Shown in pieces: positions 12,762-48,178 of a stretch of 64,000 nt of DNA. The stretch comes from Eledone cirrhosa (Eukaryota): positions 14,384,001-14,448,000 of the forward strand of contig OZ024761.1 in the NCBI GenBank assembly GCA_964016885.1, written 5' to 3'. The notes under the pieces are model-generated. The model saw only the letters and a list, made by a program, of their open reading frames with translations, did not search any database and was not told where the DNA came from. The position numbers and the translations under genes are program-made. Position 1 is the first letter of the stretch, and the number at the start of each line of letters is the position of its first letter.

Positions 12762-13239
12762 CGTATATCGTAGAATATGGAGATTTCTTTTCTTTTTCTT
12801 GCTCTTTCTTGATCCTGAGCAACAGAATGATCTTACGTAGCGGCATGACAACCACGAAGGCGGTGGCGTTGATGAAGTTTCCTATGGCAACGGCTGGGTC
12901 CCGGAACACGGGGTTAGCAATAGTGGAGACCACCATCCAGACTAGGAAACAGCTGCTGGAGCAGAGACAAGCCACGACTATCCATCGGGACTCGTAGTAG
13001 TTCTTATCGTTGTCCCAGAGCAACGAGCCGAAGTAGATGGCGAAGAAATCGAGAAGGAAAATGAAGACGAAGGAAAGGGCTAGCCCCGTGTCGTAGCTGT
13101 CGGACGGCGCACACCAGTTGTAGTCGTGCCATAGTTTTCTGATACTGTCGCTAGAAGAAATACTGCCTGCGCCCACGGACGGATAGAGAGTCACAGCTGA
13201 AGGCTTGACCAAAATAAGCCACTCTGTGTTTAGGAGAAC
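12762..13239 (-). CDS. GPCR exon 16 (end of TM4, ECL2, TM5 to TM7, start of C-tail)
   Basis: Acceptor cacacag|; [22 protein letters not shown]. Donor G|gtaagt follows 12762; if it is not used, the frame reads on to TAA at 12709-12711. Confidence 0.92.

Positions 13240-48178: not shown

Follow-up and report, generated by a model that had tools for sequence, protein, structure and literature searches.

The window, that is, the whole 64,000-nt stretch of the Eledone cirrhosa genome analysed here (assembly GCA_964016885.1, contig OZ024761.1, positions 14,384,001 to 14,448,000), is AT-rich, with abundant microsatellites, and carries long open reading frames (ORFs) on the minus strand that span its 12.7-48.2 kb. 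From the splice sites we rebuilt a minus-strand gene of 16 coding exons, running from an ATG at 48178 to 12762, which encodes a G protein-coupled receptor (GPCR) of class C with five chained Venus-flytrap (VFT) modules. The protein begins with a signal-like N-terminus (judged from hydropathy and orthologues), continues with the five modules and ends in one class C seven-transmembrane domain (7TM); the ectodomain comprises 2,400 amino acids (aa). The exons are listed below with the evidence for each. All coordinates are positions in the window, and ligand-pocket sites are given in mGlu1 numbering (TM, transmembrane helix; ECL2, second extracellular loop).

47980..48178, minus strand: exon 1 (aa 1-66), signal-like N-terminus and start of VFT1 (splice sites, hydropathy)
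47115..47198, minus strand: exon 2, VFT1 (splice sites, orthologue alignment)
45354..45476, minus strand: exon 3, VFT1 (splice sites)
43119..43285, minus strand: exon 4, lobe 1 of VFT1; S143 (=S165) kept, equivalents of T188 and D208 lost (Pfam, residue alignment)
39285..40154, minus strand: exon 5, remainder of VFT1, to aa 481 (Pfam, spliced contig)
37347..38771, minus strand: exon 6, the whole of module 2 (aa 482-956), three-Cys linker C513/C518/C521 and VFT2 (Pfam, orthologues, spliced contig)
34978..35607, minus strand: exon 7, linker C980/C984/C987 and first part of VFT3 (Pfam, spliced contig)
31764..32085, minus strand: exon 8, VFT3 (splice sites, spliced contig)
30640..31085, minus strand: exon 9, end of VFT3, aa 1422 (splice sites, spliced contig)
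29278..29425, minus strand: exon 10, linker whose last Cys (C1454) does not vary, then the first strand of VFT4 (splice sites, orthologues)
24643..25943, minus strand: exon 11, VFT4, the most conserved module; pocket for the amino-acid backbone intact (S1569, T1592 and D1612), equivalents of R78 and K409 absent (Pfam, orthologue and structure-database matches, residue alignment)
21567..22670, minus strand: exon 12, linker C1929/C1935/C1938 and most of VFT5 (Pfam, orthologues)
20524..20865, minus strand: exon 13, end of VFT5, aa 2387 (splice sites)
18916..19364, minus strand: exon 14, last linker C2417/C2420/C2422, variable spacer, TM1-TM2 and start of TM3 (Pfam, orthologues)
17795..17957, minus strand: exon 15, TM3-TM4; K3.50 is K2554 (Pfam, residue alignment)
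12762..13239, minus strand: exon 16, ECL2, TM5-TM7 and start of the tail; E6.35 is E2674; GT donor at its end (Pfam, residue alignment)
11153..11205, minus strand: candidate exon 17 (tentative), 17 codons and a stop, for a total of 2,767 aa (acceptor score; best pyrimidine tract of the top eight)

Our rebuild was independent of the first-pass annotation of this DNA and reproduces its 16 in-frame exons and its module lengths of 481, 475, 466, 483 and 482 aa: all 15 introns are GT-AG, the 2,750 codons of the spliced model hold no stop, and every module is closed by a phase-0 intron. As had also been claimed, neither a second signal peptide nor a transmembrane segment lies between the modules; 19-mers with a hydropathy above 1.6 are confined to aa 5-23 and to the part that begins at aa 2473. 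A Pfam scan of 14 single-exon ORFs found ANF_receptor in six (exons 4, 5, 6, 7, 11 and 12, covering the five modules), 7tm_3 (PF00003) in three (exons 14-16) and no match to NCD3G, while the expected profile count of five ANF_receptor, one 7tm_3 and no NCD3G was returned exactly by the orthologues P0007, P0008 and P0049. Collapse in the assembly and recent duplication were both rejected, because the modules are only 20-29% identical to each other as protein and blastn finds zero DNA similarity between them. GC content is 0.449 in the coding sequence versus 0.311 in the introns. A small correction to the earlier ~2,765-aa model concerns its end: position 12762 is a splice donor (GTAAGT), past which read-through meets a stop after ~17 codons. 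Orthologue tails suggest that a terminal 17th exon is likely to exist, and we tentatively place it at 11205-11153, which shares the best score of 780 acceptors when compared with three orthologue tails. At the other end of the gene, the presence of an acceptor AG at 48188 points to a non-coding exon upstream. The 20 kb on either side of the window yielded no additional VFT exons.

Four sequencing runs (X1-X4), none of them recorded as RNA, carry DNA of the locus, and we compared them over positions 30100-40300. Contigs of X1-X3 run across the exon-intron borders, whereas one 6,105-nt contig of X4 aligns as five consecutive pieces that match exons 9, 8, 7, 6 and 5 without a gap and with 2 deviating letters. 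We read X4, whose organism label is the same as that of the window, as cDNA solely from these exon-exact joins. They indicate that the VFT1/VFT2 and VFT2/VFT3 joints are spliced under that label; these are the exon 5-6 and 6-7 junctions, among those that the first-pass annotation had proposed to check with transcripts. Judged by length only, the unaligned ends of the contig (~1,745 and 667 nt) would fit a sequence that extends into exon 12 at one end and through exon 1 at the other. At position 31048, in exon 9, the spliced contig and the DNA contigs differ by A>G; this is T>C on the coding strand and so is not A-to-I editing, and it is probably an allele. Elsewhere, four Logan records that cluster with a Sepia protein encode 2,767-2,769 aa on contigs of 8,573-8,603 nt, which leaves no space for introns, and further intron-less contigs of 9,030 and 8,611 nt carry, respectively, a five-VFT protein of 2,802 aa and a four-VFT protein of 2,376 aa; all of these contigs are assemblies, not single molecules. 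We conclude that the five-VFT receptor is confirmed as one gene, transcribed and deeply conserved.

The conservation is seen first within molluscs. A search based on the 7TM returned 15 proteins, 13 of which are full-length orthologues of 2,764-2,821 aa: Argonauta, a Logan record, Haliotis, Bulinus and nine bivalves. In 64 of 65 comparisons with these 13 the best match of a module was the module of the same number, the exception being module 2 of Bulinus. The Eledone protein is nearest to those of octopods, with 63% identity to Argonauta over the full length and 62-72% per module to Octopus. A word-limited search for shorter forms, which is therefore no evidence of their absence, gave two fragments consisting of module 5 plus 7TM and one ordinary receptor. 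An exhaustive homologue search, from which the best 150 of 3,336 matches were taken (with taxonomy for 20 of the 150), added five-VFT proteins from the nemertean Tubulanus and from Physella (the latter in a second paralogue group), four-VFT proteins from Limulus, Centruroides, Dinothrombium, Saccoglossus and Anneissia, two- to three-VFT proteins from Branchiostoma, and partial members from Macrostomum and Romanomermis. Uncharacterised predictions in other molluscs had been anticipated correctly, but their range had been under-called: judged by its sequences, the multi-VFT class C family, with two to five VFTs, is bilaterian-wide, including molluscs, a nemertean, chelicerates, a hemichordate, a crinoid and amphioxus. 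The matches obtained contained no vertebrate member and no insect one, although no test was aimed at absence from insects. The only vertebrate records with several ANF stretches among those best 150 were four Polypterus models annotated 'CASR, partial' (P0056, P0060, P0061, P0065), which have 6-10 ANF hits, carry NCD3G and were excluded as presumed fused tandem genes.

In a tree of modules, the VFTs of molluscs, nemertean and flatworm cluster for the most part with others of the same position, and the chelicerate VFT1 joins the VFT1 group (support 97). Such positional grouping implies that the five-module array is older than the split of molluscs and nemerteans; the deuterostome arrays may have expanded separately. 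Two 7TM trees were unrooted and built without GABA-B, GPRC5 or T1R rows. The first places 32 multi-VFT and 23 mGluR/CaSR-like rows on opposite sides of a branch with an SH-aLRT of 100, and the second splits 24 multi-VFT from 15 single-VFT rows at 100/99; under midpoint rooting the multi-VFT set is not a single clade. P0066, P0074, P0075, P0084, P0092, P0137, P0145 and P0154 were omitted from the trees because they are probably fusions or fragments.

Several related proteins were encountered in the course of these searches. P0052 (Physella), P0054 and P0055 form a second five-VFT paralogue group, distinct by its 7TM from the main molluscan orthologues. The Eledone genome itself has a second multi-VFT class C receptor (C4:36949642-36957664, minus strand; L011, L020-L021) with at least two VFT exons and a 7TM, orthologous to the three-VFT scallop protein P0003. 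A sister set of ~1,000-1,540 aa combines two VFTs and similar three-Cys linkers with one C-terminal transmembrane helix and a cytoplasmic tail (P0089, P0103, P0104, P0107, P0108, P0116 (Pecten LOC117331910), P0133, P0139, P0155, P0157, P0158, P0164, P0170, P0176, P0184, P0190 and P0193). Pfam found no 7tm_3, kinase or cyclase in the eight of these that were scanned. Their VFT1 groups with module 1 and their VFT2 with modules 2-4, and they look like a second undescribed receptor family. The Polypterus models, with 6-12 ANF stretches and NCD3G, are probably fused tandem genes of V2R/OlfC type and make a useful negative control. Two close group II-type mGluR genes also lie in the Eledone genome, at C27:4968615-4969370 (L003) and C14:27052705-27053379 (L004); in L003 the VFT, cysteine-rich domain (CRD) and 7TM share one open frame of >800 aa, which suggests an intron-poor retrocopy.

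The receptor has 7tm_3, an N-terminal ANF_receptor VFT and the residues typical of the class: the disulfide cysteines of TM3 and ECL2 are both present in all 32 multi-VFT 7TMs, and K3.50 and E6.35 of the class C ionic lock in 30 of 32 each. A family profile of the 7TM scores mGlu3/2 highest (156-153 bits), followed by other mGlus, GPRC5D (98) and CaSR (88). With a single sequence the top match was GPRC5D (E 7e-8), about equal to mGlu2; a GPRC5/BOSS-like origin of the 7TM was dropped because the profile favours mGlu3. Matches in the ESM Atlas were generic 7tm_3 clusters only. NCD3G was absent from every multi-VFT member scanned and present in 11 of 11 single-VFT controls. By the features compared, the receptor is a class C GPCR and is not an mGluR, a CaSR/T1R/V2R or a GPRC5.

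In place of a complete CRD, a three-Cys linker stands behind every VFT, also in the non-molluscan members shown, and it is best regarded as a putative remnant of that domain. All 70 molluscan modules and 50 of the 53 others have the lobe-2 cysteine of the VFT. The cuttlefish-cluster protein has jointly lost cysteines one and two of the linker between modules 3 and 4 and has kept the last one. Both AlphaFold models are of orthologues of the window's spliced protein. For modules 4 and 5 of one orthologue two complete VFTs were predicted (pLDDT 82, pTM 0.54), and the fold matches mGlu8/mGlu2 with a Z of 47 and an rmsd of 2.0-2.2 Å over ~431 residues. For module 5 plus 7TM of another orthologue the model shows a VFT and seven helices (pTM 0.59), the VFT matching with a Z of 38 over residues 1-485 versus 33-527 of 2e4u. 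When the module 4-5 model is aligned with full ectodomains, the alignments stop at linker residues 506-509, opposite residue 527 of mGlu3 and 518 of mGlu2. We take C518 and C527 to be the CRD cysteines that are bonded to lobe 2. Passages of PMC10543438 treat the two as equivalent, and according to passages of PMC11362167 one cysteine bond lets the apical module of the CRD align this domain with the VFT and pass the signal on.

The modules differ in their pockets. We assume the mGlu1 pocket sites to be S165, T188, D208, Y236 and D318. All five are kept in eight of eight single-VFT controls. Among 14 orthologues, the window protein included (70 molluscan modules), the counts in that order are 14/0/0/11/12 for VFT1, 7/11/5/8/6 for VFT2, 4/13/12/8/6 for VFT3, 14/13/14/12/10 for VFT4 (D or E counted at D318) and 8/11/9/11/13 for VFT5. 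VFT4 is also the most conserved module (mean identity 0.52 and 76 invariant columns, versus 0.36-0.42 and 19-37 in the others). In all 14 orthologues VFT1 lacks the alpha-amino contacts T188/D208, and in nine it has Arg at the S186 position. In the window protein the S-T-D-aromatic signature occurs in VFT4 only, one module of five, and few pocket residues are left in VFT2 and VFT5. The first-pass statement that each module has the VFT motif set therefore holds for the fold cysteines and fails for the ligand-binding residues. In the nemertean Tubulanus the S-T/S-D-Y-D/E backbone signature is found in all five modules, several bivalve and nemertean proteins keep three to five module signatures, and the full signature is missing from all four modules of three chelicerate proteins. 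Of the 70 molluscan modules, 2 have R78 and 0 have K409; the loss of these residues, confirmed as glutamate contacts in passages of PMC6307864, makes glutamate unlikely as a ligand.

We tentatively favour, with somewhat more doubt than confidence, a dimeric sensor of amino acids other than glutamate that would act mainly via VFT4, with disulfide-tethered linkers relaying its closure through VFT5 to the 7TM; beyond the residue patterns every mechanistic step is our inference. By analogy with other class C receptors, the protein would dimerise and sense free L-amino acids. The ancestral spiralian protein may have had five amino-acid-type pockets with differing side-chain positions. Since VFT4 alone keeps the full pocket in the octopod, it is the likely main sensor, and VFT1-3 and VFT5 could be spacers, dimer contacts or sensors of other ligands. 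The lobe-2 cysteine of each VFT probably forms a bond with the final cysteine in the short linker that follows, the presumed vestige of the apical mGluR CRD. Closure of VFT4 would pull on its linker and re-orient VFT5, and the 7TM, with its K3.50-E6.35 lock, would then activate a G protein. Several observations weigh against this scheme. In octopods the Y236 position of VFT4 holds F or Y and the D318 position G, K or S, and the arrays of three chelicerate proteins persist with no full signature in any of four modules, so that small-molecule sensing is not the sole purpose of the family. The binding module is not adjacent to the membrane, AlphaFold left the VFT4-VFT5 orientation unfixed (pTM 0.54; linker pLDDT <50 at 498-512), and the cysteine pairing is inferred. 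The ~24-residue spacer (488-511) between the last linker and TM1 is poorly conserved and of low confidence in the model; such a loose connection, unlike the semi-rigid mGluR CRD, weakens the case for a rigid relay. In the 7TM, most members have Arg in the TM7 proline column, and R3.53, part of the mGluR lock network, has mostly given way to other residues.

A rival reading, which we find rather unlikely but a serious contender, is that the chain of VFTs is mainly a long stalk or a surface for protein interaction (adhesion to cells or matrix or at synapses, or the binding of a protein ligand), with most or all pockets vestigial and the 7TM signalling on contact or tension; an adhesion-like stalk had also been considered in the first-pass annotation. 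The pocket is degenerate in four of the five modules here and in every one of the four modules of three chelicerate proteins, while the cysteines and the domain count are kept; the tether to TM1 is predicted to be flexible, and the two-VFT single-pass proteins use the same modules without a 7TM. Mechanical activation is reported for GABA-B in a preprint (bioRxiv 10.1101/2025.06.09.658551). The VFT4 pocket residues, on the other hand, are the best-conserved part of the ectodomain across molluscs, the nemertean keeps all five pockets, and Pfam scans of the family found no known adhesion domain. That nemertean, together with the bivalve and nemertean proteins with three to five signatures, would fit instead a receptor that integrates several live pockets tuned to different small molecules, as a coincidence detector or a chemosensor of broad spectrum, and so would the ancient, position-specific nature of the modules and the consistent alternative pocket of VFT1 (S165 in 14 of 14). 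For the octopod this is clearly unlikely, with most pocket residues gone from VFT2 and VFT5, and with signals from VFT1-3 having to cross two to four joints that are loosely oriented in the models. The multi-ligand or coincidence sensor proposed in the first-pass annotation thus suits the nemertean and is a poor fit to the octopod; a true multi-ligand integrator is more plausible in bivalves and the nemertean.

It is improbable that the protein is a non-signalling partner subunit or a decoy, either paired with another class C subunit or with two-VFT single-pass proteins, or shed or secreted as an ectodomain. The tail is short, R3.53 is lost, a second multi-VFT receptor is present in the same genome, and the phase-0 intron at every module border, with a stop 3-37 codons in, means that intronic polyadenylation could yield soluble forms. 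Yet K3.50/E6.35 are kept, furin-type sites number 0 in the window protein and occur in three of 14 orthologues at unrelated positions, and the X4 spliced contig passes straight through two module borders. The same contig, with the four intron-less 8.57-8.60 kb contigs, makes it extremely improbable that the gene model has merged separate tandem genes. In the newer O. bimaculoides annotation the locus is indeed split into three proteins (995, 429 and 729 aa), two bivalve records are fragments of module 5 plus 7TM only, and fusions of this kind occur elsewhere, as in Polypterus; but the split pieces have no signal peptides, the protein has no internal signal peptide, transmembrane segment or stop, and the real fusions carry NCD3G and in one case an internal 7TM, neither of which is found in the five-VFT protein.

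The window also has several minor features. A 63-bp minisatellite (17.9 copies, 94% matches) lies at 43500-44625, within the intron between exons 3 and 4, and very high-depth repeats at ~36,200-37,200. ORF fragments at 35508-36002 (plus strand), 2095-2676 (minus) and 60946-61263 (plus) resemble retroelement remnants; Pfam gave no match for them or for any of the five ORFs scanned that do not belong to the gene. Long inverted repeats, judged by eye to resemble miniature inverted-repeat transposable elements (MITEs), are found at 48280-48600, 49240-49600, 26250-26540 and 40660-41340.

Models of class C activation assume one flytrap per subunit and a semi-rigid cysteine-rich domain. The five-flytrap layout is no octopus novelty: with the same register in cephalopods, gastropods and bivalves as well as in a nemertean, it implies that class C architecture is extendable, and it offers a natural test of serial allostery and of the role of the VFT-CRD disulfide by itself. 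An orphan receptor family is added that supplies candidate amino-acid sensors for molluscs, arachnids and invertebrate deuterostomes, and the residue patterns point to VFT4 as the first module of functional interest. More broadly, though we think it rather doubtful, these proteins may represent an unrecognised, ancestrally bilaterian branch of class C built from a repeatable unit of VFT plus three-Cys knuckle, in which stacked flytraps with differing pockets relay serially, by allostery, to one 7TM as a multi-input integrator, and whose module also built the two-VFT single-pass sister family.

The five-VFT architecture is already implicit in database predictions (for example XP_014781428, GAB1608014, LOC117333723, LOC100374272, LOC106458191 and LOC118426443; 3-5 ANF and 7tm_3), which carry automatic names only ('uncharacterized', 'mGluR3-like'), and is apparently undescribed. 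The papers listed in our literature searches, which exclude supplements of GPCR surveys and subscription papers, gave no description of a multi-VFT class C GPCR, no mention of six LOC identifiers of such predictions and, as the first-pass annotation had it, no functional description. Nor do the passages retrieved from PMC6307864, PMC12716839, PMC6408891, PMC11362167 and PMC10543438 describe one; a figure legend in PMC12716839 gives single-ANF architectures for metazoan glutamate receptors. The best solved relatives of both VFTs and 7TM are mGlu2/3/7/8 (PDB 2e4u, 2e4z, 8tqb, 6bt5), with VFT4 nearest to mGlu7/3 (mGlu7 at E 7e-63), and the lobe-2 cysteine, the TM3-ECL2 cysteines and K3.50/E6.35 are shared with them. 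An mGluR, however, has one VFT and a nine-Cys NCD3G, whereas the receptor described here has five VFTs and three-Cys linkers, lacks R78/K409 and places its 7TM outside the sampled mGluR rows. The CaSR/T1R/GPRC6A/V2R-OlfC receptors likewise have an amino-acid-type pocket without the glutamate-specific residues, but combine a single VFT with NCD3G and match less well (VFT4-CaSR 5e-24; 7TM 88 bits). GPRC5D, a class C orphan, is similar in its 7TM but has a short N-terminus with no VFT, in contrast to the 2,400-aa ectodomain here, and the profile favours mGlu2/3. As for GABA-B, the best solved matches were mGluRs, and the trees contained no GABA-B sequence. The mGluR class IV receptors presumably have a single VFT plus CRD. 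Compared by description, no class IV sequence having been identified here, this class, of the Drosophila DmXR type, resembles the multi-VFT family in being invertebrate and missing from vertebrates, in keeping the backbone contacts and in having lost R78/K409; passages of PMC6307864 place it as a sister group of mGluR I-III. Among the papers listed in our literature searches, the only characterised tandem-VFT receptors were the bacterial histidine kinases BvgS of Bordetella and EvgS of E. coli. They have no 7TM, and we take their two VFTs to be of another periplasmic-binding class. These kinases (PMC4352136) nevertheless provide a precedent for the relay of a signal through stacked flytraps.
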